From an uncultured Acidimicrobiales bacterium (lineage in GTDB: Bacteria > Actinomycetota > Acidimicrobiia > Acidimicrobiales > DATKAS01): a stretch of DNA of 64,000 nucleotides. The stretch spans positions 1,935,711 through 1,999,710 of the forward strand of contig CAVTEI010000003.1 of assembly GCA_963733765.1 (NCBI GenBank). The letters are read 5' to 3'. Positions 525 through 58,905 of this stretch are shown one piece after another; the stretch's first letter is position 1; every line of letters begins with the position of its first letter. The notes under the pieces are model-generated. The model did no database searches, had not been told where the DNA came from, and saw nothing but the letters and a program-made list of their open reading frames with translations. The translations under genes and the position numbers were made by a program.

Positions 525-1687
525 GGCGTGCCGCCGTCGATGCGCAGGATCGCGCCGGTCGTGAAGCTCGAGGCGGCGCTCGCGAAGTACAGCGCGGCGC
601 CCACGACCTCGTCGGGCTGACCGCCCCTCCGCATCGCCATCGTCACCTCGGCTCGCTTCTGGAACATCTCGAGATCCCAGGCCTTGGAGATGTCGGTGAG
701 GAAAGGCCCGGCCTGGATGCAGTTCACCCGCACGGTCGGGCCGAAGGCGTGTGCGAACGCGACGGTCATCGCGTTGAGGCCCGCCTTTGCGGCGGCGTAG
801 GGGATGACGTCGGGGGAGGGCCGGATCGACGCGACGCTCGACACGTTGATGATCGAGCCTCCGTCCCCCTCGGCCATCCGGGTGCCGACGACCGCGCTCA
901 GCCGGAACGGACCCTTGAGGTTCACATCGAGCACCTTGTCGTAGAGCGACTCGGTGACGTTCGCGACGGCGTCGTAGAGCGGCGACATGCCTGCGTTGTT
1001 GACGAGCACGTCGACCTTGCCGAACCGCTCGTAGGCGGCGTCGGCCAGCGCGTCGACCTGCCCCCATTCTCCGACGTGGCACGCGAAGGGCAGCGCCTTC
1101 CGACCCGTCGTGCGCTCGACTTCCTCCGCGAGCTCCTCACAGGACGCGAGCTTGCGGCTCGCGATGACCACGTCGGCGCCGCACGCGGCGAACGCCAGCA
1201 CCATCGAACGGCCGAGGCCGCGGCTTCCGCCCGTCACCACGGCCACCTTGTCGGTGAGATCGAATTGCTCGAGAGGGTTGCTCATGGCGATGGTGTAGCG
1301 CGTCGACTGGGCGGCGACGACCGCGACTTCGACCAACCACTGGGGCCGGGCGAGCGCGGGGACATAGACGAGCGTCGACGCCGGTCGGTGGTCCTTCATC
1401 ACGGCGTCGCGAGCTTCCATCACCAGGGCCACGTTCGCGCCCGCCACGACATACGTCGTCATGGACACGATGTCGTCGATGACGAACCCCGACTCGGCGA
1501 GGATCACCCCGATGTTGCTCCAGACGAGCTTGGACTGTTCGCCGAGGCCCTCGGGGACCGATCCGTCGGGAGCCACGGGGACGACCCCCGCGGTGTGCAA
1601 CATCGCCTTTACGCCACTCGACACCACGCCGTGCGAGTACGCCGCGGCCGGAGGCGCGATCGACGCGGGGTTCACGGCGCGGTTCAC
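521..1687 (-). CDS. RidA/YjgF-like domain fused in frame to a short-chain dehydrogenase/reductase
   Basis: 388-aa ORF with a GTG start. The first ~128 aa look like RidA/YjgF (AAAYSHGV ... [10 protein letters not shown]). Residues ~137-388 are a classical SDR ([20 protein letters not shown]). No stop codon lies between the two parts. Confidence 0.8.
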
Positions 1688-1713
1688 GCGCGCGGGTTCA
1701 CGCTGGGGTTCAT
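1684..1713 (-). other. bridging mini-[12 protein letters not shown] between deoD and the RidA-SDR gene
   Basis: ATG 1713-1711 overlaps the deoD TGA (1712-1710). Its TGA 1686-1684 overlaps the GTG start 1687-1685 of the next gene. It lies in tandem (A/G)TGAACC units. Confidence 0.35.
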
Positions 1714-3057: not shown

Positions 3058-3849
3058 TCAGGCCGGTGGCAGGTCGAGGCCGCCCGCCGCGATCTCCTGC
3101 TCACCCTCGGGAGTGAAGAGAAACTCGATGAACGCGTCGGCCGCACCCGGGTTCGTCGACGCGTTGAGCTTCGCGACGATGCCAGGCACGGTCGCCCGCA
3201 AGTCGACGTCGAGCGCGAGCGACGAGACCGCAGCCGTTGCGTCGGTGCGGTAGGCGAGCCCCGCGCTCGCCCGACCGGTTGCGATGGCCTCGACGACCGT
3301 TTCGCCGTCGGTCGCGAGCACCTCTGGGCTCACGGTGAGACCCGCCCGCATCAACGCGCTGTCGGCAGCCTTCCCGCAGGAGGAGTCGAGGCTGCACAGT
3401 GCAACCGCGCGATTGGGGTCCGCCAAGTCGGCGAGTCCGGCGACACTCTCGGGATTGCCGGGAGGAACGACCAGTACGAGGGGGTCGCTTCCGAAGACGA
3501 GGGGCTCGGTCGCGAGGTGGCCGTTCATCGCGAGAAGGTCGACCGCGTCGCGTCCGATGCTGATGAACACGTCGCCCATCAACCCGCCGGCAACCTGATT
3601 GACCAGCCCGTTGGCGCCGCCGGCGGTCACCACCACCTCGACGCCGGGGTTGAGCTGCGTGAACGCGCTCGCAAGGCGCTCGACGGCAGGGGCGATCGGT
3701 GCGGCCGCGAGCACGACCAAGCGGCCGGTCGGAGGACCGGGAACGGTCGTCGGCGTCGTGGTGGCTACGACGACGGGCGCGACCTCGGTCGCACATCCGG
3801 CGAGCACCGCCGCGGCGGCGAACGCAGCGCACGAGAGCGGCCGTCTCAC
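3058..3849 (-). CDS. modA: ModA-like molybdate/tungstate-binding periplasmic lipoprotein (orphan, no modBC nearby)
   Basis: Lipobox AAAVLAGC, then LVVLAAAPIAPAVERLASAF...TAGGANGLVNQVAGGLMGDVFISIG, which aligns by eye with E. coli ModA (VFAAASL...SFASSGTLARQIEAGAPADLFISA). The GTG start 3849-3847 overlaps the upstream stop (GTGA). Confidence 0.7.
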   Translation of the reverse strand: MRRPLSCAAFAAAAVLAGCATEVAPVVVATTTPTTVPGPPTGRLVVLAAAPIAPAVERLASAFTQLNPGVEVVVTAGGANGLVNQVAGGLMGDVFISIGRDAVDLLAMNGHLATEPLVFGSDPLVLVVPPGNPESVAGLADLADPNRAVALCSLDSSCGKAADSALMRAGLTVSPEVLATDGETVVEAIATGRASAGLAYRTDATAAVSSLALDVDLRATVPGIVAKLNASTNPGAADAFIEFLFTPEGEQEIAAGGLDLPPA

Positions 3850-4784
3850 GTCTCGTACCCGGTGAGGATGCGTCGCGCGACGTCGGCACGGCGAGCCTGG
3901 AGGGCCGGGTCGTCCCACTCGGCCTCGGCTCCGAGCCGCACGAGCAGGTAGTCGAGGCGTTCGTCACCCATCACACCCAGCTGCACCGAGAGCCACCCCT
4001 CGCCGGCGGGCTCGACGCCGTACACCGTGTAGTCGTCCTCGAGAAGGTTGCGGAAACGATCGCTCACACGCACGGAGACGCGAGTGAGGTGCTCGGCGTA
4101 CGAGAACTCGGCGGGCACCTCGATCTCGTCCGCGGGAGGCGTGAAACGAGTACGAGTCATCGCAGCCTCGGCCATGAGGTCGATGCGGAAGTACTTCAGA
4201 CGGTCGTCCCGGTCGCGTCCGTACACGTACCACGAGCCGAACTTTCGGAACACCTTGTACGGCTCGATCTCCCGGTCGGTGGGCTCCATGGCGCCCGGCT
4301 TCAAGTAGCCGAAGCTCACGGTGGTCTCCTCCTCGACGCCGTCGCGCACGGCCTCCAGGCACGGCGGTTCGGGGAGGTGGACCACCACGACCCCGACAAG
4401 CGGCTCGAGCTTGTTGAGCGCGGCGTCGAGCGCGGCGTCGGGCCTGACCGAGCTCTGGCTGATGACGAGCCCGGCAAGATCCAGCTCGAGGGCACTGATC
4501 GAGCTCGGGGGCAACGACCGCATGTCGCGCAGCCAATGGGCGCTGTCCACCGACAGCGTCTCGCTCTCCTCGTCGTAGGAGAACGCGTCCGCCTCGTCGA
4601 TCAGCTCTCCGTCGCTCTGTGAGCGAAACGAGAGGTACAGCACGGGGTCGAGCACGGAGCGCAGTGTTGCGACGTCGACGCCAAGGCGTGACGCGGCATC
4701 GGGCAAGCCGACCGACCCTTGTTCCTCGGCCATGCCGAGGAGCGCCTTCAACACCTCGAACCGGCGTCGCGCGGACAGCGCCAT
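3846..4784 (-). CDS. pafC: HTH-WYL-domain transcriptional regulator, PafC-like
   Basis: 312 aa. N-terminal wHTH (RRFEVLKALLGMAEEQGSVGLPDAASRLGVDVATLRSVL) and a WYL-type core (IEPYKVFRKFGSWYVYGRDRDDRLKYFRIDLM). It is the second gene of a tandem pair, as in actinobacterial pafBC. Confidence 0.6.
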   Translation of the reverse strand: MALSARRRFEVLKALLGMAEEQGSVGLPDAASRLGVDVATLRSVLDPVLYLSFRSQSDGELIDEADAFSYDEESETLSVDSAHWLRDMRSLPPSSISALELDLAGLVISQSSVRPDAALDAALNKLEPLVGVVVVHLPEPPCLEAVRDGVEEETTVSFGYLKPGAMEPTDREIEPYKVFRKFGSWYVYGRDRDDRLKYFRIDLMAEAAMTRTRFTPPADEIEVPAEFSYAEHLTRVSVRVSDRFRNLLEDDYTVYGVEPAGEGWLSVQLGVMGDERLDYLLVRLGAEAEWDDPALQARRADVARRILTGYET

Positions 4785-4819
4785 CAGCGGAGCTCCGACA
4801 GCGCCATCAGTGGAGCTCG
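4774..4819. repeat. 23-bp tandem duplication of the pafB/pafC junction
   Basis: gacagcgccatcagcggagctcc (4774-4796) is followed by gacagcgccatcagtggagctcg (4797-4819); 21/23 identical. Confidence 0.9.
4784..4807 (-). other. bridging mini-ORF MALSELR* between the pafB-like and pafC-like genes
   Basis: ATG 4807-4805 overlaps the pafB-like TGA (4809-4807) as TGATG. TGA 4786-4784 overlaps the pafC-like ATG (4784-4782) as TGATG. It was created by a 23-bp tandem duplication. Confidence 0.35.
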
Positions 4820-11598: not shown

Positions 11599-13227
11599 AT
11601 GCTCCGTCACCTCTGGGTGTGCACGGCGTGCGTCACGGCGTCGGTGCTGTCCGTCACTCCTGCGCTCGCCGCCGAAGACCTGCAGGGTCCGAGCCAGGTG
11701 CACTACGCGCCGCCCGTCGACGGCCCGATCATCGATCACTTCCGCGCACCGGCGGCGAGATGGGCGGCGGGCAACCGAGGCATCGACTACGAGGCGATCC
11801 CCGGCGAAGCGGTCCTCGCGTCGGCTGACGGCACCGTCGAGTTCGCGGGCCAAGTCGGCGGCACGTTGCACGTCGTCGTCAAACACGCGGACGGTCTCCG
11901 CACGAGCTATTCGTTCCTTGCCTCGGTCTCGGTGATCGAGGGCCAGCAACTCGCGCGCGGCACACCGGTCGGCCGCGCCGGAGCGTCGGTGCACTTCGGC
12001 GTGCGGCTCGGCGACACCTATCTCGATCCCGAGCTCGTGCTCGAGGGCCGCGCCTTCGGCGTGCGCCTCGTGCCGGTCGAGGACCAGACAGAAGCAGAAC
12101 GGCGGCTCGGCGAGATGGTGCGCGACGCGTTCGTCGACGAATGGGCCGCCGGCGGCGGTGGTGGTGTGCCCGCCGCTGTCGTGGGGTGGTTGCGCGACAC
12201 CGCGGATCCGGCCGAGCTGTTGCGTTTGGCCATCCACTACACCAAGGCCGTGTCGGTGCCGGTGCACATCGCGTCGGCAGGCTTCGCGGTCGCGCGGTGG
12301 TACCGACAGCGGACGACGTGCACCGCGAGCGATGGCGTCACCGCGATCGCGGAGCAACCCGTCGGCGACCACATCGTGGTGCTCGTCGCCGGGTTTGGGT
12401 CGTCGAGCGAGTCGGGCGCGGGCATCGACGGGGTCGACTTCGAGACGATCGGCATCCCCGTCGACCGGGTGATGCGGTTCTCCTACAACGGCGGACGCGT
12501 ACCCGGCTCATCCAGCGGCGCGAGCGGGCCGTTCGCCGCGCTCGACACGACGACCTACACGACCTTCGACAGCCAGCGACCGCTCGACGAGGCCGCGGAG
12601 CGTCTCCGTCAGACACTCGAGCAGGTCGCGGCCGAGAACCCCGGCGCCCCGATCGATGTGATCGGCCATTCGCAGGGCGGAGTGGTCGCGCTCCGCGCAC
12701 TCCAGCTCGGGGCCGCCGCCGGATCCCCGCCCGTGGGCGTCCGTCTCGTGACGATCGCGTCCCCGCACCGGGGAGACACGCTCGCGACCGGCGCTGACCT
12801 GCTGTCGCGCAGCCCCCTCCACGAGCTCGCGCTCGACGGTGCGGAGATCGCGATCCCGCAGTTCGCCGACGATGTGCACGACGACGGGTCGGCCCACGAC
12901 CTCTCAGCGGCGTCGGCGTTCATGGACGACTACCAATCGCGCGGGTTGCCGCCCGGGGTGTTCGCGGTGTCGATCGGCGGTCGCTGGGATCCGGTGGTGC
13001 CAGCGCGCGATGCGCGCCTCGACGGTGCCGCACACATCACTGTCGATGTCGGGGGCGTTGCCGCCCATGGCCGGCTGCCGTCCGCCGATGTCGTCACGAC
13101 ACAAGTCGCGCTGGCGGTTCGAGGAGCCCGACCGACCTGCGAGGGTCTGCTCGACGCACTCACCGACCACCTCGCTTCCGACGCCGTGGCCACGGCCGAG
13201 GACCTCGTCGCCCTTGGGTTGGGATGA
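11599..13227 (+). CDS. secreted M23 peptidase domain fused to a C-terminal alpha/beta-hydrolase (lipase/esterase-like) domain
   Basis: Signal peptide ...VTPALAAED. M23 core NRGIDYEAIPGEAVLASADGTVEFAGQVGGTLHVVVKHADGLRTSYSFL. C-terminal half has nucleophile elbow IDVIGHSQGGVVAL plus later Asp/His candidates (RWDPVVP, AAHGRLP). Confidence 0.8.
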   Translation: MLRHLWVCTACVTASVLSVTPALAAEDLQGPSQVHYAPPVDGPIIDHFRAPAARWAAGNRGIDYEAIPGEAVLASADGTVEFAGQVGGTLHVVVKHADGLRTSYSFLASVSVIEGQQLARGTPVGRAGASVHFGVRLGDTYLDPELVLEGRAFGVRLVPVEDQTEAERRLGEMVRDAFVDEWAAGGGGGVPAAVVGWLRDTADPAELLRLAIHYTKAVSVPVHIASAGFAVARWYRQRTTCTASDGVTAIAEQPVGDHIVVLVAGFGSSSESGAGIDGVDFETIGIPVDRVMRFSYNGGRVPGSSSGASGPFAALDTTTYTTFDSQRPLDEAAERLRQTLEQVAAENPGAPIDVIGHSQGGVVALRALQLGAAAGSPPVGVRLVTIASPHRGDTLATGADLLSRSPLHELALDGAEIAIPQFADDVHDDGSAHDLSAASAFMDDYQSRGLPPGVFAVSIGGRWDPVVPARDARLDGAAHITVDVGGVAAHGRLPSADVVTTQVALAVRGARPTCEGLLDALTDHLASDAVATAEDLVALGLG

Positions 13228-13252
13228 CCCGCTGTGATGACCCGCTGTGATG
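13223..13252. repeat. 13-bp tandem repeat (2.3 copies) at the stop codon of the M23-hydrolase gene
   Basis: gatgacccgctgt gatgacccgctgt gatg; the first copy contains the TGA stop (13225-13227). Confidence 0.9.
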
Positions 13253-13394
13253 GAGGCGCACCAGGGTCAACCGTCTACACTGGCCGGGCTCCGAGGGTCC
13301 CCTCGAGCACCACCTACACCATCACCCGTGCCCACCCGCGGTCGCCAGCAGGCGAAGGGTGCGGGCTTCGTCGAACCGCCGGGAGGAGAGCACC

Positions 13395-14462
13395 ATGGCG
13401 CCTGTCGTCACCATGAAGCAGCTGCTCGAGGCTGGCGTTCACTTCGGACACCAGACTCGCCGCTGGAATCCCAAGATGCAGCGCTTCATCTTCGGAGAGC
13501 GCAACGGCATCTACATCATCGATCTCCAGCAGACGCTGGCGCGGATCGAGACGGCCTACTCCTTCGTCCGCGATCTCGTCGCCGACGGCGGCTCCGTGCT
13601 CTTCATCGGCACGAAGAAGCAGGCGCAGGACCCGATCCAGTCCTACGCCGAGCGCTGCGGTATGCCCTACGTCAACGAGCGCTGGCTGGGCGGCATGCTC
13701 ACGAACTTCGAGACGATCGCGAAGCGCGTCGAGAAGATGCAGGAGTACGAGCGCATGCGCGCGACCGGTGAGTTCGATGCGATGCCCAAGAAAGAGGCGC
13801 TGATTCTCGGCCGCGAGCTCGTGAAGCTGCAGCGCAACCTCGGCGGGCTGCGCAGCATGACCAAGCTGCCGGAAGCCGTGTTCATCCTCGACACGAAGAA
13901 GGAGCACATCGCCGTCACCGAGGCGAACAAGCTCCACTTGCCGATCGTGGCTGTCGTCGACACGAACTGTGATCCCGACGTCATCCAGTACGTGATCCCG
14001 GGCAACGACGACGCGATCCGATCCGGCACCCTGATGTGCCGGATCCTCGCCGACGCGGTCGATGAGGGCCGGTTCATCGCCGCCCGCCGCAACCCGCGTG
14101 CCGCCGGCGGCCCGCCGCCCCGCGACGCGGCCGACGACGCCCGTATCGCCGCCGAGCAGGCTGAGGCTCGCAAGCAGGCCGCGGCTGCCGCGGCCGACCG
14201 CGAAGCCCGCGTCCTCGCCGCTCGTCAGAAGGCGCTCACCGAGGAAGAGCAACCGGCCGCTGAGCCCGCGACGGCTGAATCGGCGAGCGCCGAGCCCGCG
14301 ACGGCCGAGCCCGTCGCAGTTGAGGTCGACGCGCCCGTCGCCGCCGAGGTCGACGCGCCCGCCGCTGAGGCGCCCGGTGAGGAATCCGTCGCCACTGAGG
14401 TCGAGGCGCCCGCGGGCGACATCGCACCCGCGGCATCCGCTACCGAATCCACTGAGGAGTGA
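13395..14462 (+). CDS. rpsB: 30S ribosomal protein S2 with a long Ala/Pro/Glu-rich C-terminal tail
   Basis: [44 protein letters not shown]... is canonical S2. GGGAGGAG lies upstream of ATG 13395. The last ~110 aa are low complexity with internal repeats. Confidence 0.95.
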
Positions 14463-14471
14463 AAGACCCCG

Positions 14472-15267
14472 ATGGCTGAGTTCACCGCCAAGGACGTCCA
14501 AGAGGTTCGTCAGGCCACGGGCGCCGGCATGCTCGACAGCAAGAAGGCGCTCGAGGAGACGAACGGTGACAAGGAAGAGGCGATGCAGCTGCTGCGCGAG
14601 CGTGGCTTGGCTGCGTCTGCGAAGCGCGCCGATCGTGACAACACGCAGGGCGCTGTGGCCCTGGTGATCTCGGGTGATGCCGCCGCGATGGTCGAGCTGA
14701 AGTGTGAGACCGACTTCGTTGCGAAGTCCGAACAGTTCAACGCTGTCGCAAACGACCTCGCTCAAGCAGTGGTTGCGGGTGGCCCCGACGCCGCCAGTCA
14801 GCGCTCGGGCGATCTCGACGAGCTGAAGATCTCGCTCAAGGAGAACATCGAGCTCGGCCGCGTCGTGCAGTTCGTGAAGGGCGCTGGGAACGTTCTCGAC
14901 AGCTACCTGCACGTGCAGAGTGAGCGAGGCGTGAACGGCGTGCTCGTCGAGACGTCAGGAACCTCGCAGGAGGTCGCACACGACATCGCGGTCCACATCG
15001 CGTTCGCGCGCCCGAAGTACCTCACGCGCGACGAGGTGCCCGCGGAGGACGTAGAGAAGGAGCGCGGCGACGCTCGAGGCGATCACGCGAAACGAGGGAA
15101 AGCCCGAGCAGGCGATCTCGAAGATCGTCGAGGGGCGCCTCAACGGCTACTTCAAGGACCTGGTTCTGCTCGACCAGCCGTTCGCAAAGGACGACAAGAA
15201 GTCGGTGCGCGACGTGATCGGCTCGGGCTCGATCATCCGGTTCGCCCAGATCGAGATCGGCGCCTGA
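14472..15267 (+). CDS. tsf: elongation factor Ts, frame broken by one extra base near 15064-15066
   Basis: N-terminus [45 protein letters not shown]... runs to ...PAEDVEKER in the frame of ORF 14472. The conserved C-terminus [66 protein letters not shown] is in the +1 frame (open from 15055, stop 15265-15267). Confidence 0.9.
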
Positions 15268-45986: not shown

Positions 45987-47648
45987 GTGGCTGATCCTGT
46001 TCGCATCGTCTTCCTCGGAGGCCTCGGCGAGATCGGCCGCAACTGCGCGTGCATCGAGGTCGACGGGCGCATCATGCTCCTCGACTGCGGCCTGATGTTC
46101 CCCGAGGCGGACATGCCGGGCATCGACCTCGTGCTTCCCGACTTCACGTACCTGCGCGAGAACGCGCACCGCATCGACGGCTGCGTCGCCACCCACGGCC
46201 ACGAGGATCACGTGGGCGGCCTGTCCTTCTTGCTCCGCGACGTGTCGTTTCCGATCTACGGGTCCCCGCTCACCCTGGGGTTGGCTCGCAGCCGCATCGA
46301 GGAGGCGGGTCTGCTCGGTCGCACCGAGCTCGTGCCAGTGGCAGATGGCGAGCGTCGCGTGGTCGGCCCGTTCGATCTCGAGTTCATCCCCGTCACCCAC
46401 TCGGTGCCTTACACGTTCGCGACCGCGTTCCACACACCTCAAGGCGTGATCCTCCACTCCGGCGATTTCAAGCTCGACCTCACTCCGGTCGACGGTCGCC
46501 GCACCGACCTGTCCCGAATCGGCGCGATCGCTTCGTCGACCGGCGTCCGTCTGCTGCTCTCCGACTCGACGAACGCAGAGGAGCCCGGCCACGCTCCGTC
46601 CGAGCGCGAGGTGGGCCGGGTGTTGATCAACCTCTTCCGCCAGCACGAGGGGCGGCGCATCATCACCGCCTCGTTCGCGAGCCACATCCACCGCATTCAG
46701 CAGATCGCCGATGCGGCGATCGCGTGCGGACGCGTCGTCGCCACGCTCGGACTCTCGGTCAAGCGCAACGTGCGGCTCGCGCGCGACCTCGGACTGCTCA
46801 CCATTCCTGACGCCTCAATCGTCGAGATCGAGGCAATCGCGGACCTTCCTCCCGGGAAGGTGTGCGTCGTGTCGACAGGGTCACAGGGCGAGCCGATGTC
46901 GGCGCTCGCGCTGCTCGCGTCGGGCGACAACCGTTGGCTCAAGCTCACCAGCGAGGACACGGTCATCCTGAGCTCGCACGCCATCCCCGGCAACGAGCAC
47001 AACGTCAACAAGGTCATCGACGGGCTCTTGAGGGTCGGCGCCGAGGTCGTGCACTCCGGAGTGGCCGATGTGCACGCCACCGGCCATGCCCAGGCCGAGG
47101 AGCTCAAGATGCTGATGGCGCTCGCGAAGCCCGAGCTGTTCATCCCCGTGCACGGCGAGTTCCGCCACATGATGGCGCACGCCCGCCTCGCCAATCAGAT
47201 GGGGCTGCCCGACAGCAACATCCTCCTGGCCGAGGACGGCGATGTCGTCGCGCTCACCGACGACGGCATCGACTTCGCCGGACGAGTGCCGGCGGGTTAC
47301 CTCTACGTCGACGGCATCGTCGGCGATGTCGGTCACGGCGTGCTGCGCGATCGTCGCGTGCTCGCGGAAGAGGGCGTTGTCGTCGTCGTCGTGACCGTCG
47401 ACGTGTCGACGGGAAACGTCATCACCGGGCCCGAGATCATCACCCGAGGATGGGTCTACGCGCCCGAGGCCGAGGACCTCATCGACGAAGCCGCCGATCA
47501 CGCGCGCCGCGCGGTCGAGCACGCGTTCGCCTCCGGTGCGCACGACTCCGAGGCCCTGCAGCGTCACCTGCGCCAAGCGGTTGGTCGGTTCGTCAGCGAG
47601 CGCACCCGCCGTAAGCCGATGATCGTGCCCGTCGTGATGGAGGCGTAG
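45987..47648 (+). CDS. rnj: ribonuclease J
   Basis: 553 aa. Metallo-beta-lactamase motif THGHEDHVGG, beta-CASP region, and conserved position after dapA. Confidence 0.92.
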   Translation: MADPVRIVFLGGLGEIGRNCACIEVDGRIMLLDCGLMFPEADMPGIDLVLPDFTYLRENAHRIDGCVATHGHEDHVGGLSFLLRDVSFPIYGSPLTLGLARSRIEEAGLLGRTELVPVADGERRVVGPFDLEFIPVTHSVPYTFATAFHTPQGVILHSGDFKLDLTPVDGRRTDLSRIGAIASSTGVRLLLSDSTNAEEPGHAPSEREVGRVLINLFRQHEGRRIITASFASHIHRIQQIADAAIACGRVVATLGLSVKRNVRLARDLGLLTIPDASIVEIEAIADLPPGKVCVVSTGSQGEPMSALALLASGDNRWLKLTSEDTVILSSHAIPGNEHNVNKVIDGLLRVGAEVVHSGVADVHATGHAQAEELKMLMALAKPELFIPVHGEFRHMMAHARLANQMGLPDSNILLAEDGDVVALTDDGIDFAGRVPAGYLYVDGIVGDVGHGVLRDRRVLAEEGVVVVVVTVDVSTGNVITGPEIITRGWVYAPEAEDLIDEAADHARRAVEHAFASGAHDSEALQRHLRQAVGRFVSERTRRKPMIVPVVMEA

Positions 47649-47663: not shown

Positions 47664-48134
47664 TCAACCGAAGGTGTAGATGTAGGCCACGATCGCATCG
47701 ATCTCTTCGGCCGACAGATCGTCACCGAACGACGGCATCGAGCCGGTGCCGTCGGTGACGATCGCGACGACCTCGGATTGATCGGGGAAGCTCTCCTCGA
47801 GGTTCTGCAGCGAAGGCCCGAGGCCACCCCCTCCGTCGTCGCCGTGGCACGACGCGCATTCGTCGTTGTAGAGCGCCTGCCCGTCGACTGCGCTCGCCGC
47901 GGTCGTGTCGGCGGCTGCTGTCGTGTCGGCGCCGCCGGCCTCTTCTGTCGTGTCGGCGCCATCGTCGCCGGTCGTGTCCGGCGGGGCGGCGGTCGTCGCC
48001 ACCGCGACATCGTCACCCCCGCCGCCCTCGTCGTCGCTCGACCACGGTGGGAAAGACGACGCGAACAGCGAGACGATGAACAGCGCGGCCAGTGCCAGCG
48101 CCACGATCTGCAGCACGTTCGTGATGCGCTTCAT
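47664..48134 (-). CDS. membrane-anchored class I c-type cytochrome
   Basis: N-terminal TM helix, Thr/Asp/Ala-rich linker, haem motif CASCHG and distal Met context TGSMPSFG. Confidence 0.85.
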   Translation of the reverse strand: MKRITNVLQIVALALAALFIVSLFASSFPPWSSDDEGGGGDDVAVATTAAPPDTTGDDGADTTEEAGGADTTAAADTTAASAVDGQALYNDECASCHGDDGGGGLGPSLQNLEESFPDQSEVVAIVTDGTGSMPSFGDDLSAEEIDAIVAYIYTFG

Positions 48135-48156
48135 CGGGTCATCGGAGTCGGGCCAT
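48131..48156 (-). other. two consecutive bridging mini-ORFs (MARLR*, MTR*) between the membrane-protein gene and the cytochrome c gene
   Basis: The minus strand reads tcTGATGgcccgactccgATGAcccgATGAag. ATG 48156-48154 overlaps the upstream TGA. TGA 48141-48139 overlaps ATG 48142-48140. TGA 48133-48131 overlaps the cytochrome c ATG 48134-48132. Confidence 0.35.
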
Positions 48157-48902
48157 CAGAACGAGGGGAACCCGTGCTCGAACCACCACCACACCGCGCT
48201 GGTCGCCCACACGAGGATGAGCGCGGTGAACACCACGCCGCCTGCGACCGGCAAGCCCCAACGCGGGAGCTTGCGATTGCGTACGCACAGCACCTTCGTC
48301 ACGAACGCGCCGTACACGATGCATCCGACGACGGAGTGCACGGCCCACCACGGGTTGCCGTAGTCGTTGAAGCCGAGCGCCCAGAGGCACTGAAAGGCGA
48401 CGGGCAGGCTCACGATGAACGCCAGCGTCCCCGCCATGCGATGCGCCTGCGGCATCCACGGCTTGCGCCGGCCCTGTGCGCGTTTGCCGAAGAGCCGGCG
48501 CCCCACCCACTCCTGGAAGACGGCGAGTGCGGCAGCCAATGTCGCGAACCACACCTTGAACTCCGGCTGCCCGCTGAAGAACCAGATGAACGGTTGCTCG
48601 AAGGTCGGGTCGTGGACGTTCGCGTACACGCCGAGCGCGAGCGCGACGAGAGCGCCGATGCCCGAGAAGATGAGCATCCGCCGAAGTCGATCCGGCGGTG
48701 TCTTGCCGCTCGCGGGCCGACGCGCGGGCGGGTCGGCCGTGGCGACGGCAGGTGCGATGACGGTCGCCGGTTCGGCTACGGGCGGGGCGACGGTCGCCGC
48801 GGTCGACTCCGGCGGGGCGAACGGAGGCGGCGGCACGCTTCCCCCGCGCGGCGGAGGCTTGGGCGGAATCGGACGAGAGCCCGGTTGTTGCTCGTCGGCC
48901 AC
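48156..48902 (-). CDS. uncharacterised polytopic membrane protein with Pro-rich N-terminus
   Basis: 248 aa with about five hydrophobic helices after a Pro-rich cytoplasmic region. His residues conserved in appearance lie in helices (AHRMAGTLAF, AVHSVVGC). Family not recognised with confidence. Confidence 0.6.
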   Translation of the reverse strand: MADEQQPGSRPIPPKPPPRGGSVPPPPFAPPESTAATVAPPVAEPATVIAPAVATADPPARRPASGKTPPDRLRRMLIFSGIGALVALALGVYANVHDPTFEQPFIWFFSGQPEFKVWFATLAAALAVFQEWVGRRLFGKRAQGRRKPWMPQAHRMAGTLAFIVSLPVAFQCLWALGFNDYGNPWWAVHSVVGCIVYGAFVTKVLCVRNRKLPRWGLPVAGGVVFTALILVWATSAVWWWFEHGFPSF

Positions 48903-49034
48903 CGCTCTCCCTTCGTCGCCTCCGACCTCGTCGCGCGCCAGAGGCGTCCGCTCGTCGGGCGACGCTAGCCCGCGCCGTCCGCGCGGGCATCGGGAGTCTC
49001 GGAGGGGGCATGACCCACGGGTACCCTGAGGTCA

Positions 49035-50393
49035 ATGGCCGTGCGCTTCGTGATCATCGGTGGTGGCCCCGCGGGCAACCAGGCCGCGACCTACGCCGCT
49101 CGCCTCGGGGCTGAGGTCGTGCTCGTCGAGAGAGACATCGTCGGCGGCGCCGCCCACCTGTGGGACTGCATCCCCTCGAAGACCATGATCGCGACAGGCG
49201 GCGCGATGTCGTTCTTCCGGCGTGCGGAGGGCATGGGTCTCGACGTGGATGCCGCCCTCGACCGCGACAGCCTGAGGGGTCGAGTCGACCGCATCGAGGA
49301 ACGACTCCATCGCGCGATCGTCCAGCTCTTGACCAGCCAGAACGTGCGCCTCATCGAGGGCGCCGCGCGTCTCAAGGGCCCGAACCAGGTCGTCGTCGAG
49401 ACGGCGACGGGAGTCGAGGAGCTCGAGGCTGATGCCATTCAGCTGTCGACTGGGTCGCGGCCCCGCGTGCCCGAGTGGTGTGTGCCCGACGGCAACCGCA
49501 TCTTGACGACGCGTGACTGCTATCCACCTCCGCAGATACCCGAGCATGCGGTCGTGGTGGGGTCCGGTGTCACGGGAGTGGAGTTCGTGCACATGCTGTC
49601 GTCGCTCGGATCGAAGGTGACGCTCATTGTCAGCCGCCAGCAGGTGCTGCCAACGAAGGATCCCGAAGTCGCGGCGGCGCTCGAGGCCGATTTTCTGGCG
49701 CGCGGTGTGAGCTTGCTGAAGGGCGCCCGCGCGGTCGGCATCGACGTCATCGACGAGCGCATCGTCGTGCGGTGTGATGACGGGAGACAGGTCCACGGAA
49801 GCCACGCCATCCTCGCGATCGGCTCGGTGCCGAACGTCGAGGGCCTCGGCCTCGAAGCTGCAGGAGTCGAGACCGACGACAGCGGCTACGTGCCCATCAA
49901 CCATCACTGCCAGTCGAACGTGCCGCACATCTACGCGGCCGGCGATCTCTCAGGGAAGCTTCCCTTGTCTTCGGTCGCCGCGATGCAGGGCCGCAAGATC
50001 GCGGAGCACGTGATGGGTTTGCACACGCGCGAGCACCGCCATCTCGACTACGACAAGGCGGCCTCCGCGATCTTCACGGAACCCGAGATCGCCGACGTCG
50101 GTCTGGCCGAAGCCGAGGCGTTCGCCGAAGGGCGCAAGATCCGTGTGACGAAGGTGCCGTTCTCGGCGAGCGCGAAGGCGCTCATCAACAACGATCCCCG
50201 CGGCTTCGTGAAGATCCTCTCCGACCCGGCCACCGGCGTGGTGCTCGGGGGCTCGATCGTCGGCCGCCATGCCGCTGAGCTCATCTCCGTGATCGCGCTC
50301 GCGGTCACCGCGAATCTGAAGGTGAGCGACATCTACGAGAGCCTGCTGGTGCATCCGGCGCTGGCCGAGGCGCTCGCCGACGCCGCCGAGTAG
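49035..50393 (+). CDS. pyridine nucleotide-disulfide oxidoreductase family flavoprotein, LpdA-like NAD(P)H quinone reductase type
   Basis: FAD motif IIGGGPAGNQAA. The usual CxxxxC redox disulfide is reduced to a single Cys (GGAAHLWDCIPSK), as in the mycobacterial LpdA (Rv3303c)-type enzymes. Second Rossmann motif VVGSGVTGVEF. Confidence 0.8.
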   Translation: MAVRFVIIGGGPAGNQAATYAARLGAEVVLVERDIVGGAAHLWDCIPSKTMIATGGAMSFFRRAEGMGLDVDAALDRDSLRGRVDRIEERLHRAIVQLLTSQNVRLIEGAARLKGPNQVVVETATGVEELEADAIQLSTGSRPRVPEWCVPDGNRILTTRDCYPPPQIPEHAVVVGSGVTGVEFVHMLSSLGSKVTLIVSRQQVLPTKDPEVAAALEADFLARGVSLLKGARAVGIDVIDERIVVRCDDGRQVHGSHAILAIGSVPNVEGLGLEAAGVETDDSGYVPINHHCQSNVPHIYAAGDLSGKLPLSSVAAMQGRKIAEHVMGLHTREHRHLDYDKAASAIFTEPEIADVGLAEAEAFAEGRKIRVTKVPFSASAKALINNDPRGFVKILSDPATGVVLGGSIVGRHAAELISVIALAVTANLKVSDIYESLLVHPALAEALADAAE

Positions 50394-57725: not shown

Positions 57726-58888
57726 CGGCTGAGCCGACGAAGGTGAAACCGCTTCGCGTGGGAGTGAACCTCCTGTGGCTGGCGCCCGGCGATGTGGGCG
57801 GATCCGAGGAGTACGTTTGCCGCCTCCTCGACGGCCTCGGGGAGGTCGACCGCCACGATCTCGAGCTGACGCTGTTCGCGAACAAGCGCTTTTGGGGAGC
57901 CCATCCGACGATCGCGAACGCGCACCGTCTGGAGGTCGCCGCGATCTCGGGTCGATCGCGGGCGACGCGCATCGCCGCGGAGGTGAGCTGGCTGGCCACT
58001 CGGGCCAGGGGCCTCGGCCTCGACGTCATGCACCATCCCGGCGGCACGGTGCCCCCGCGCACCGCCAGGCCTGTCGTGCTGTCTCTCCACGACCTGCAGT
58101 ACCTCGAGTACCCCGAGTTCTTCTCGCCGCTCAAGCGCGCCTATCTCCGCAGCGCGGTGCCGCGATCGACGAGACAGGCGGCGATCGTCACGGCACCTAG
58201 CGAGTTCGCGCGCGGCACGGTCATCCATCTGCTCGGCATCGCCGCGGACCGGGTGCTCGTCGTGCCGCACAGCATCCCCGCGGGCGAGCCGGGTTGGGGC
58301 ACTCCACCCGACGTGGTCCGCGCCCACTACGACCTCCCCGGTCCATTCCTCCTGTATCCCGCTGTCACGTGGGCGCACAAGAACCACGTTGCGGTCGTAC
58401 GTGCGCTTTCGGCATTGCGGGCAAAGCACCCCGACCTCACCCTCGTCCTCACTGGCGCCCCGGGTCCGGCGGAAGGTGCCCTCACTGCGGAGATCGACCG
58501 GCTCGGGCTCGCCGACTCCGTGCGGCGCACCGGGCGAGTACCGGCCGTGGACGTCAACGGTCTCTACGACGAGGCCGTGGCAACAGTCGTGCCCTCGCGC
58601 TACGAGGGCTTCGGGATCCCAGCCCTCGAAGCGATGCGCCGGGGATGCCCCGTCGTGGCCGCGAACGCGACCGCCCTCCCCGAGGTGGTCGGCGACGCGG
58701 GTGTACTCGTCCATCCCGACGACATCGACGGCTGGGTGGCGGCGATCGACTCGATCATGGGCGACCCCGAGCGGCGGAGTGCGCTCGTCGAGGCCGGAAT
58801 CTCCCGCGCCGCGTCCTTCAGCGGTGCACGAGCCGCGGCGGCGCTGCTCAGCGCGTACCGTCGCGCCGCGGAGGTCCACAACTCGTGA
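57722..58888 (+). CDS. GT4-family glycosyltransferase
   Basis: ATG 57722 overlaps the upstream stop (ATGA). ...VVPSRYEGFGIPALEAM.... Confidence 0.8.
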   Translation: MTAEPTKVKPLRVGVNLLWLAPGDVGGSEEYVCRLLDGLGEVDRHDLELTLFANKRFWGAHPTIANAHRLEVAAISGRSRATRIAAEVSWLATRARGLGLDVMHHPGGTVPPRTARPVVLSLHDLQYLEYPEFFSPLKRAYLRSAVPRSTRQAAIVTAPSEFARGTVIHLLGIAADRVLVVPHSIPAGEPGWGTPPDVVRAHYDLPGPFLLYPAVTWAHKNHVAVVRALSALRAKHPDLTLVLTGAPGPAEGALTAEIDRLGLADSVRRTGRVPAVDVNGLYDEAVATVVPSRYEGFGIPALEAMRRGCPVVAANATALPEVVGDAGVLVHPDDIDGWVAAIDSIMGDPERRSALVEAGISRAASFSGARAAAALLSAYRRAAEVHNS

Positions 58889-58905
58889 AGGTCGCAGCCT
58901 CGTGA
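58885..58905 (+). other. bridging mini-ORF VKVAAS* between the second and third glycosyltransferase genes
   Basis: GTG 58885-58887 overlaps TGA 58886-58888. TGA 58903-58905 overlaps GTG 58902-58904. The motif ctcgtga is repeated 17 nt apart. Confidence 0.35.

Follow-up and report, generated by a model that had tools for sequence, protein, structure and literature searches.

How does translation reach a start codon that has no Shine-Dalgarno (SD) motif and lies 21 nt beyond the stop codon of the preceding gene? The question is raised by a junction on the minus strand of a 64,000-nt stretch of DNA from an uncultured Acidimicrobiales bacterium (assembly GCA_963733765.1, contig CAVTEI010000003.1, positions 1,935,711 to 1,999,710), hereafter called the window, in which a gene for a DUF6529 membrane protein is followed by a gene for a membrane-anchored monohaem cytochrome c. 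We found that the gap between the two genes is tiled exactly by two mini open reading frames (mini-ORFs), which connect the stop codon of the first gene to the start codon of the second through three consecutive stop-start overlaps, and that this relay originated by tandem duplication of a 14-nt junction unit. We give an even chance to the reading that the junction is an expanded termination-reinitiation (TeRe) site, in which the mini-ORFs would pass ribosomes on to the SD-less cytochrome c start.

A two-step stop-start relay in a 21-nt gap

The DUF6529 gene (48156..48902, minus strand, 248 aa) runs from a GTG start at 48902 to a TGA stop at 48158-48156, and the cytochrome c gene (47664..48134, minus strand, 156 aa) starts with the ATG at 48134-48132. 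This start is well placed, since the N-terminus MKR.TNV of the protein is conserved. Across the junction the minus strand reads ...GGG TTC CCC TCG TTC TGA TGG CCC GAC TCC GAT GAC CCG ATG AAG CGC.... In link 1 (48154..48158, minus strand), which reads TGATG, the A that ends the DUF6529 stop is also the first base of the mini-ORF 1 start codon, a 1-nt overlap. Mini-ORF 1, ATG GCC CGA CTC CGA TGA (48139..48156, minus strand), encodes MARLR in 5 codons, with its ATG at 48156-48154 and its stop at 48141-48139, and this stop overlaps the ATG of mini-ORF 2 by 4 nt in the sequence ATGA (link 2, 48139..48142, minus strand). Mini-ORF 2, ATG ACC CGA TGA (48131..48142, minus strand), encodes MTR in 3 codons (ATG at 48142-48140, stop at 48133-48131), and its stop overlaps the cytochrome c ATG in another ATGA (link 3, 48131..48134, minus strand), the final A of which is supplied by the conserved Lys-2 codon AAG. 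Every hand-over at the junction is a stop-start overlap of 1 or 4 nt, the overlap by which TeRe sites are recognized. The original prediction had described this chain, with its overlaps and its peptides MARLR and MTR, and reading of the minus strand confirmed it; the two proteins had also been named correctly, as judged from matches to PF20139 and PF13442 and from the CxxCH motif.

What had gone unremarked is that the DUF6529 TGA and the cytochrome c ATG share a frame at a distance of 24 nt. Because every link moves the reading frame by 2 mod 3, exactly three links, and with them two mini-ORFs, are needed to span an in-frame gap; by the same arithmetic, a gap of 3n+1 requires one mini-ORF.

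The junction was examined for other signals that could bring ribosomes to the cytochrome c start. SD strength was expressed as the energy of the anti-SD duplex upstream of the start, and values of -5 kcal/mol or below were taken as SD-like. The cytochrome c start of the window has no SD-like motif, the duplex energy being -1.5 kcal/mol. No RNA structure hiding this start was detected in a 121-nt fold (z = +0.96, with 175 of 200 shuffles folding at least as well), and the Rfam search of the junction returned no family, its single match being a spurious miRNA model (E 0.96). No internal promoter or terminator was found in the same-strand 21-nt gap, the promoter scan relying on the sigma-70 consensus, which is weak for an actinobacterium of 69% GC. 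For annotation, this means that the 21-nt "intergenic" gap is to be described as holding no conventional ribosome-binding site.

Strict coupling was found in 13 of the 14 overlapping gene pairs tested in H. volcanii and E. coli (PMC6728339), and in these organisms gaps of ~20 nt nearly abolish re-initiation (PMC10666635). According to the current model, a bacterial ribosome that has terminated does not scan, and re-initiation is confined to codons that overlap the stop or lie almost next to it (PMC10666635). Since overlaps are coupled, gaps of this size are hardly crossed and neither an SD motif nor a structure was found here, sequential TeRe through the mini-ORFs is the most economical reading of the junction. 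A ribosome finishing DUF6529 at the UGA would re-initiate at the overlapping AUG, translate MARLR and terminate. It would then re-initiate at the AUG that overlaps the MARLR stop by 4 nt, translate MTR, terminate again and re-initiate at the cytochrome c AUG, which is without an SD and would lie too far downstream to be reached directly after termination of DUF6529. The mini-peptides themselves are unlikely to matter; the key point would be that ribosomes starting at an ATG on the DUF6529 stop are kept from passing the true start out of frame.

Duplication origin and the junction series in relatives

With the flanks fixed, the probability that a 21-nt spacer forms a complete chain by chance ranges from 1.1e-4 for shuffled spacers to 3.9e-4 for spacers of window composition if only ATG is counted, and from 0.7e-3 to 2.1e-3 if GTG and TTG are also allowed; even when all same-strand junctions in the 64 kb are taken into account, the chain remains rarer than expected by chance. 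The earlier statement that three such overlaps are very unlikely by chance thus holds for a random spacer, but the independence that it presupposed does not, because the overlaps arose jointly by tandem duplication. The junction unit TGATGNCCNGATGA is present in two tandem 14-nt copies at 48131..48158 (minus strand), copy 1 at 48158-48145 being TGATGGCCCGACTC and copy 2 at 48144-48131 being CGATGACCCGATGA. In self-shift analysis, each of the four 21-nt haplotypes matched itself best at a period of 14, with 10-13 of 16 positions agreeing (10/16 in the window and 13/16 in the related contig L090), which exceeds the 8-nt periodicity. The 8-nt repeat that had been noticed at first (ccgatgac/ccgatgaa, 48145-48138 and 48137-48130) does exist, its two units agreeing at 7 of 8 bases, and this periodicity (48145-48130) falls within the 14-nt duplication.

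Copying a unit that contains a stop-start overlap at a period of 3n+2 makes a relay automatic: each copy brings its own overlap, two mini-ORFs tile the gap exactly, and the three overlaps are not independent. Slippage-type micro-duplications may have moved the stop and the start 21 nt apart, first through a unit like TGATGNCCCGATGA and then through the 14-nt tandem copy. The direct TGATG overlap was taken as the ancestral state, for which parsimony is ambiguous. At up to 3 mismatches the 28-nt junction has a single match in the window, and its 13-nt core occurs at chance frequency; a dispersed repeat or mobile element was rejected, as the 64-kb window contains no second copy of the junction motif.

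A scan of one genome per species recovered 537 DUF6529 relatives, and the best 80 loci were examined. A CxxCH ORF was found downstream of DUF6529 in 55 of these 80 loci, mostly starting 134-330 nt past the stop. The cytochrome c start was placed by the conserved N-terminus M[F]KR.V/T.N.V..., and 63 junctions were scored. The results showed that the DUF6529-cytochrome c pair is conserved in Acidimicrobiia and other Actinomycetota, and that 26 of the 63 junctions overlap directly (TGATG or NTGA, mostly TGATG), 14 have a gap of 1-4 nt, 14 have a spacer of at least 6 nt without a relay and 9 have a relay. Overlap or tight spacing is therefore kept in orthologous pairs, as is characteristic of conserved TeRe sites, and the direct overlaps and 1-4 nt gaps are, by their layout, the signature of TeRe coupling. 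A survey of this gene pair in related genomes had been suggested along with the original prediction; it bore out the pairing and the overlap, but the two-step relay itself is not conserved and is restricted to very close relatives.

Within the close clade, the junctions form a fast-changing series. Four contigs (L002, L003, L086 and L088) have the direct overlap TGATGAAGCGC, in which the TGATG of link 1 is the cytochrome c start itself; the L002 junction is TGATGAAG. One-step relays were observed in L082, L084 and L085 (TGATGAGCAGCCGATGAAG, MSSR), in L101 (TGATGAGAAGCCGATGAAG, MRSR), in L089 (TGATGCGCAGGCTCCGATGAAA, MRRLR) and in L004 (TGATGAGGAAGCAGCCGTGAAG, MRKQP), the last of which has a GTGA link and is SD-like too. 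Three TGATGAGCA..CGAC units make up the junction of L001, where a single 14-codon ORF, MSRRLMSTRLMSTR followed by a stop, contains two extra in-frame 15-nt repeats. Two-step relays are present in L081 (protein 99% identical), which has the window junction with one substitution and encodes MTRLR and MTR, and in L090 (TGATGGCCAGATGCTGATGGCCCGATGAAG), which encodes MARC and MAR and in which the internal link 2 is rewired to TGATG instead of ATGA. The L091 type (TGATGGCTCGATGCTGAGGACTCGATGAAG; L091 to L100 and L102, 17+ contigs from many samples) retains MARC, but no start lies at its stop: link 2 is lost, and GAGGA stands in its place 4 nt before the ATG. L087 (TGAGCCATG) and L083 (TAGCGAGGACAGATG) have no relay. 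A further related locus, P0130, has a spacer of 25 nt, which by its length would suit a one-step relay. Mini-ORF 1 of the window thus has likenesses in MTRLR of L081, in MARC of L090 and in MRRLR of L089, which is equal in length, has the 3' end CTCCGATGA in common and is probably homologous; the counterpart of mini-ORF 2 in L090 is MAR.

Relative to the window, 5 of the 21 spacer positions are changed in L090 and 6 of 21 in the L091 type, whereas divergence over the neighbouring 500 nt of DUF6529 is 4.4% and 3.2%, respectively, indicating that the spacer evolves at least as fast as synonymous sites. Frameshifts were observed in otherwise conserved sequence of the cytochrome c gene of L085 (about 3760-4260) and of the DUF6529 gene of L090 (about 1318-1480). 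These are probably assembly errors, and the junction reads from both contigs are slightly less trusted.

Hand-over, neutrality and other explanations of the relay

In all close-clade haplotypes with an ATG on the DUF6529 stop, the chain either terminates exactly on the cytochrome c start or stops 7 nt short of it, with an SD present, and none runs out of frame past that start. The ATG on the stop precedes the cytochrome c start by 11, 14, 14, 22 and 41 nt in the different haplotypes, and the length changes between haplotypes are +3, +15, +15 and +14, all of which are chain-compatible. The rough odds of all length changes fitting are about (1/3)^4 to (1/3)^5 if the changes are independent, and are weaker if in-frame extensions count. 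Spacers that lack a relay instead carry an SD-like motif. The median duplex energy was -6.1 kcal/mol in the 14 relay-less spacers of at least 6 nt (12/14 at -5 or below) and -2.5 kcal/mol in the 9 relay junctions (2/9 at -5 or below; Mann-Whitney p = 5e-4, not corrected for phylogeny), compared with -3.6 kcal/mol and 39% SD-like at random window positions. These results are suggestive only, and they make selection for ribosome hand-over at the junction plausible rather than demonstrated. Retention of the chain between the window and L090 was also considered as proof of selection and was rejected as not significant (P about 0.19).

A number of observations weigh against the view that ribosomes travel the relay. 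Cytochrome c could initiate unaided at its SD-less start, like many actinobacterial genes. The improbability of the chain mostly vanishes under the duplication model, and duplication of a junction unit preserves coupling in two of the three period classes (3n+2 as a relay, 3n as an N-terminal extension). The SD contrast is confounded by phylogeny, with nearly all relays coming from one clade, and five random substitutions leave the chain whole 19% of the time. The L091 type, which is the commonest of the close haplotypes, has lost link 2, and L087 and L083 do without a relay altogether, indicating that the relay is dispensable. A survey of 706 kb of related DNA showed no enrichment of permissive one-step relays (ATG or GTG) over chance: 8 of 20 mini-ORFs starting on an upstream stop were in a relay-compatible frame and 6 of these 8 were relays, about the number expected from the NTGA context, which also largely explains an apparent peak at offset -1. 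The claim that the overlaps imply tight co-translation of the two proteins is accordingly not supported as it was worded, given that the commonest close haplotype is without link 2; co-translation may be suspected rather than implied.

The strongest alternative to TeRe through the mini-ORFs is that the relay is a neutral by-product, which is a real possibility although we lean away from it. The junction would then be a slippage-prone micro-repeat, the mini-ORFs would be translated little or not at all, and cytochrome c would start unaided at an unstructured SD-less site. The 14-nt periodicity of all four 21-nt haplotypes agrees with this explanation, as do the divergence of the spacer (5-6/21, against 3-4% in the flank), which makes it look largely unconstrained, and the frequency of short tandem repeats at the locus and in the window (27-nt and 30-nt coding repeats, a 23-nt repeat at 4784-4809 and a 13-nt repeat at 13223-13248). 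It would also accommodate the lost link in the L091 type, the relay-less L087 and L083, the roughly chance frequency of GTG-type one-step relays, and a junction region less structured than its shuffles, which favours unaided initiation. Less readily explained by neutrality are the lack of any haplotype that has an ATG on the stop and runs out of frame into cytochrome c, the fit of the indels, and the SD-like motif carried by broken chains (12/14 against a background of 39%). Direct overlap at the orthologous junction in about 40% of the family suggests that coupling is important for this pair, and gaps of ~20 nt abolish coupling in the tested systems (PMC10666635).

Going beyond hand-over itself, the mini-ORFs might be a selected and evolvable way to keep or tune coupling after the junction had expanded, slippage adding or removing junction units and only those variants surviving in which a relay, an extension in frame or a newly gained SD brings the ribosome back to the true start. 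We consider this stronger version unlikely. If it were true, the junction would be a natural allelic series able to test whether post-termination ribosomes can cross a gap only by hopping along overlapping ORFs.

Less probable still is an attenuator or tuner, in which the relay carries ribosomes but lowers or modulates cytochrome c relative to DUF6529 through losses at each step, slow termination or peptidyl-tRNA drop-off, with the repeat number setting the ratio. Close relatives have between 0 and 2 steps, and this number changes quickly as repeats are gained or lost, but it has no evident link to habitat or lineage. All ATGA-linked mini-ORFs end in CGA-TGA (MRKQP of L004 ends in CCG-TGA); a CGA before the stop is, however, forced by the CGATGA overlap. 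A two-codon minigene is known to modulate a downstream gene in a distance- and frame-dependent manner (PMC8708949), yet that published effect is positive and was ascribed to mRNA protection.

An assembly error, or read-through of the TGA to give a DUF6529-cytochrome c fusion, is very improbable. The TGA at 48158-48156 is in frame with the ATG at 48134 without an intervening stop, and the frameshifts in the L085 and L090 contigs show that assembly errors occur, but the artefact that the original prediction had named as a caveat was rejected because the independent metagenome contig L081 reproduces the junction with one substitution, and read-through was rejected because the frame differs in the 10-, 13- and 40-nt haplotypes and in the direct overlaps. 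None of the 120 best DUF6529 homologues has a cytochrome c domain, and the five predicted transmembrane (TM) helices with a positive-inside N-terminus would put the DUF6529 C-terminus outside, so that the cytochrome c anchor would be inverted in a fusion.

Known coupling systems, gene context and other junction repeats

Like known TeRe pairs with ATGA or TGATG overlaps (Huber et al. 2019, PMC6728339; Huber et al. 2023, PMC10666635), the junction has canonical -1/-4 links, three in number, between co-oriented genes, and its downstream start is SD-less. Its orthologues mostly show the plain overlap, and the genes probably belong to one membrane redox module. It differs from such pairs in that the two genes themselves do not overlap: ORFs of 5 and 3 codons tile a 21-nt gap, and three successive re-initiations would be needed for coupling.

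Short ORFs at gene junctions have been described in mycobacteria, where ribosome-"delivering" short ORFs and the ORFs of MIRU repeats are coupled at -4 to the flanking gene (PMC12548453). The MIRU repeats (Supply et al. 1997, as cited in PMC12548453) likewise come from Actinomycetota and place repeated DNA in tandem, variable copies at an operon junction, with short ORFs whose ends overlap the flanking stop and start, as is also found here, an arrangement by which the inserted repeat would leave coupling intact. They are, however, 40-100 bp long, occur at many loci and seem mobile, whereas the unit here is 14 nt, is a local copy of the junction and is unique in the 64-kb window searched. In M. 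tuberculosis, NUGA/URRUG overlaps occur between upstream ORFs (uORFs) and between uORFs and genes, and 58% of such starts are without a canonical SD (bioRxiv 10.1101/2022.06.01.494293). These uORF chains (D'Halluin et al., bioRxiv 10.1101/2022.06.01.494293) and the "delivery" uORFs (PMC12548453) resemble the relay in their short ORFs with 1- or 4-nt overlaps, their often SD-less starts and their proposed hand-on role. Unlike the relay, which sits between two full-length cistrons and was read from DNA, the M. tuberculosis uORFs lie in 5' leaders and have some ribosome-profiling support.

MARLR and MTR can also be likened to regulatory minigenes, a class to which the lambda bar minigenes belong. 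Published minigenes act in cis and are sensitive to distance and frame; they have their own initiation signals and no stop-start chain from an upstream gene, unlike the mini-ORFs here. With 5 and 3 codons, MARLR and MTR fall within the size range of 2-6-codon ORFs adjoining a downstream cistron, as exemplified by mg2 in axe-txe (PMC8708949).

We regard the relay as a minor variant, produced by duplication, of a coupling mechanism already known from bacteria, and what is distinctive is its place between full-length cistrons, its construction from a local 14-nt junction duplicate and its natural allelic series. The main value lies in this comparative series, which makes the model of no scanning and required overlap testable with natural sequences. 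If ribosomes do travel the relay, the no-scanning model could readily be tested on the junction and its natural variants (direct overlap, one-step, two-step, and a single mini-ORF with an SD after it), which lie in near-identical flanks, and it would also become visible how operons take up small junction duplications while keeping two partner proteins in balance.

The gene pair is flanked by a divergent gene for a pyridine-nucleotide disulphide oxidoreductase (49035-50393, plus strand) and a convergent RNase J gene (45987-47648, plus strand), which bound it as a probable two-gene operon, and the same synteny was observed in L085, L086, L088, L091 and L102. The operon promoter is presumed to lie in the divergent intergenic region 5' of DUF6529 (48903..49034), in which the consensus scan gave no match. 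The window has a GC content of 69%, homologues of its genes are found in Acidimicrobiales metagenome-assembled genomes, and the source organism is represented by metagenomes only.

The upstream protein matches DUF6529 (Pfam PF20139, E 7.7e-54) and consists of a Pro-rich N-terminal extension and a core that was modelled by AlphaFold2 (AF2) with five TM helices (pLDDT 68.5). Its C-terminal ...GFPSF is kept across the family, and His97, His154, His189, Cys172 and Cys194, which lie within or at the ends of the five predicted TM helices, are invariant in the alignment. A fold search gave weak matches to haem proteins of the STEAP and cytochrome b561 type (E at least 0.04, TM-score at most 0.38), from which haem or metal binding by the modelled protein is a lead and nothing beyond. 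The cytochrome c has an N-terminal TM anchor, an acidic and Thr-rich low-complexity linker and a CxxCH haem domain; it matches PF13442 (E 6.6e-19) and PF00034 (E 6.4e-11), and its NCBIfam matches to c550/c551-like families were all under the cut-off. DUF6529 is a candidate for an uncharacterized membrane redox partner of this cytochrome c. Coding tandem repeats were observed in both genes, a 27-nt unit (1.9 copies, 47909-47960) in the Thr/Asp/Ala-rich cytochrome c linker and a 30-nt unit (2.1 copies, 48759-48820) in the Pro-rich DUF6529 extension, and slippage-proneness is a general trait of the locus.

Repeats were also observed at other junctions of the window. At 4784-4809 (minus strand), a second relay, gagctccacTGATGgcgctgtcg | gagctccgcTGATGgcgctgtcc, joins two WYL-domain genes (PafB/PafC-like, the upstream one also with a WCX domain) and is a 23-nt tandem duplication of the whole TGATG junction. 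Its mini-ORF, MALSELR, is a copy of the downstream N-terminus MALSARRRF, and its period of 23 is of the 3n+2 class that a relay needs. At 1687-1713 (minus strand, ccATGAaccccagcGTGAacccgcgcgcGTGAaccgcgccGTGAacccc), a mini-ORF lies between a PNP_UDP_1 phosphorylase gene and a RidA-SDR fusion gene; the units recur at 12, 14 and 12 nt, and this case is of the GTGA type and could be chance. The mini-ORF VKVAAS at 58885-58904 (plus strand, aaCTCGTGAaggtcgcagcCTCGTGAgactc), between two GT4 glycosyltransferase genes, is likewise of the GTGA type, with the heptamer CTCGTGA recurring at 17 nt, and fits the chance rate of the 706-kb survey. A perfect 13-nt tandem repeat, GATGACCCGCTGT x2 with an extra GATG, at 13223-13248 (plus strand) holds the stop of a 542-aa ORF (11599-13227). 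Its period is of the 3n+1 class, and coupling is not needed there, the next real gene (13314-14912, minus strand) being probably convergent. Among the relatives, L060 has four TGACCCG units after the stop at 4505-4570, followed by the SD GAGAGGA and no relay, and a 15-nt duplication at 4505-4560 of L044 gives rise to the in-frame N-terminal repeat MTSKR-MTFKR.

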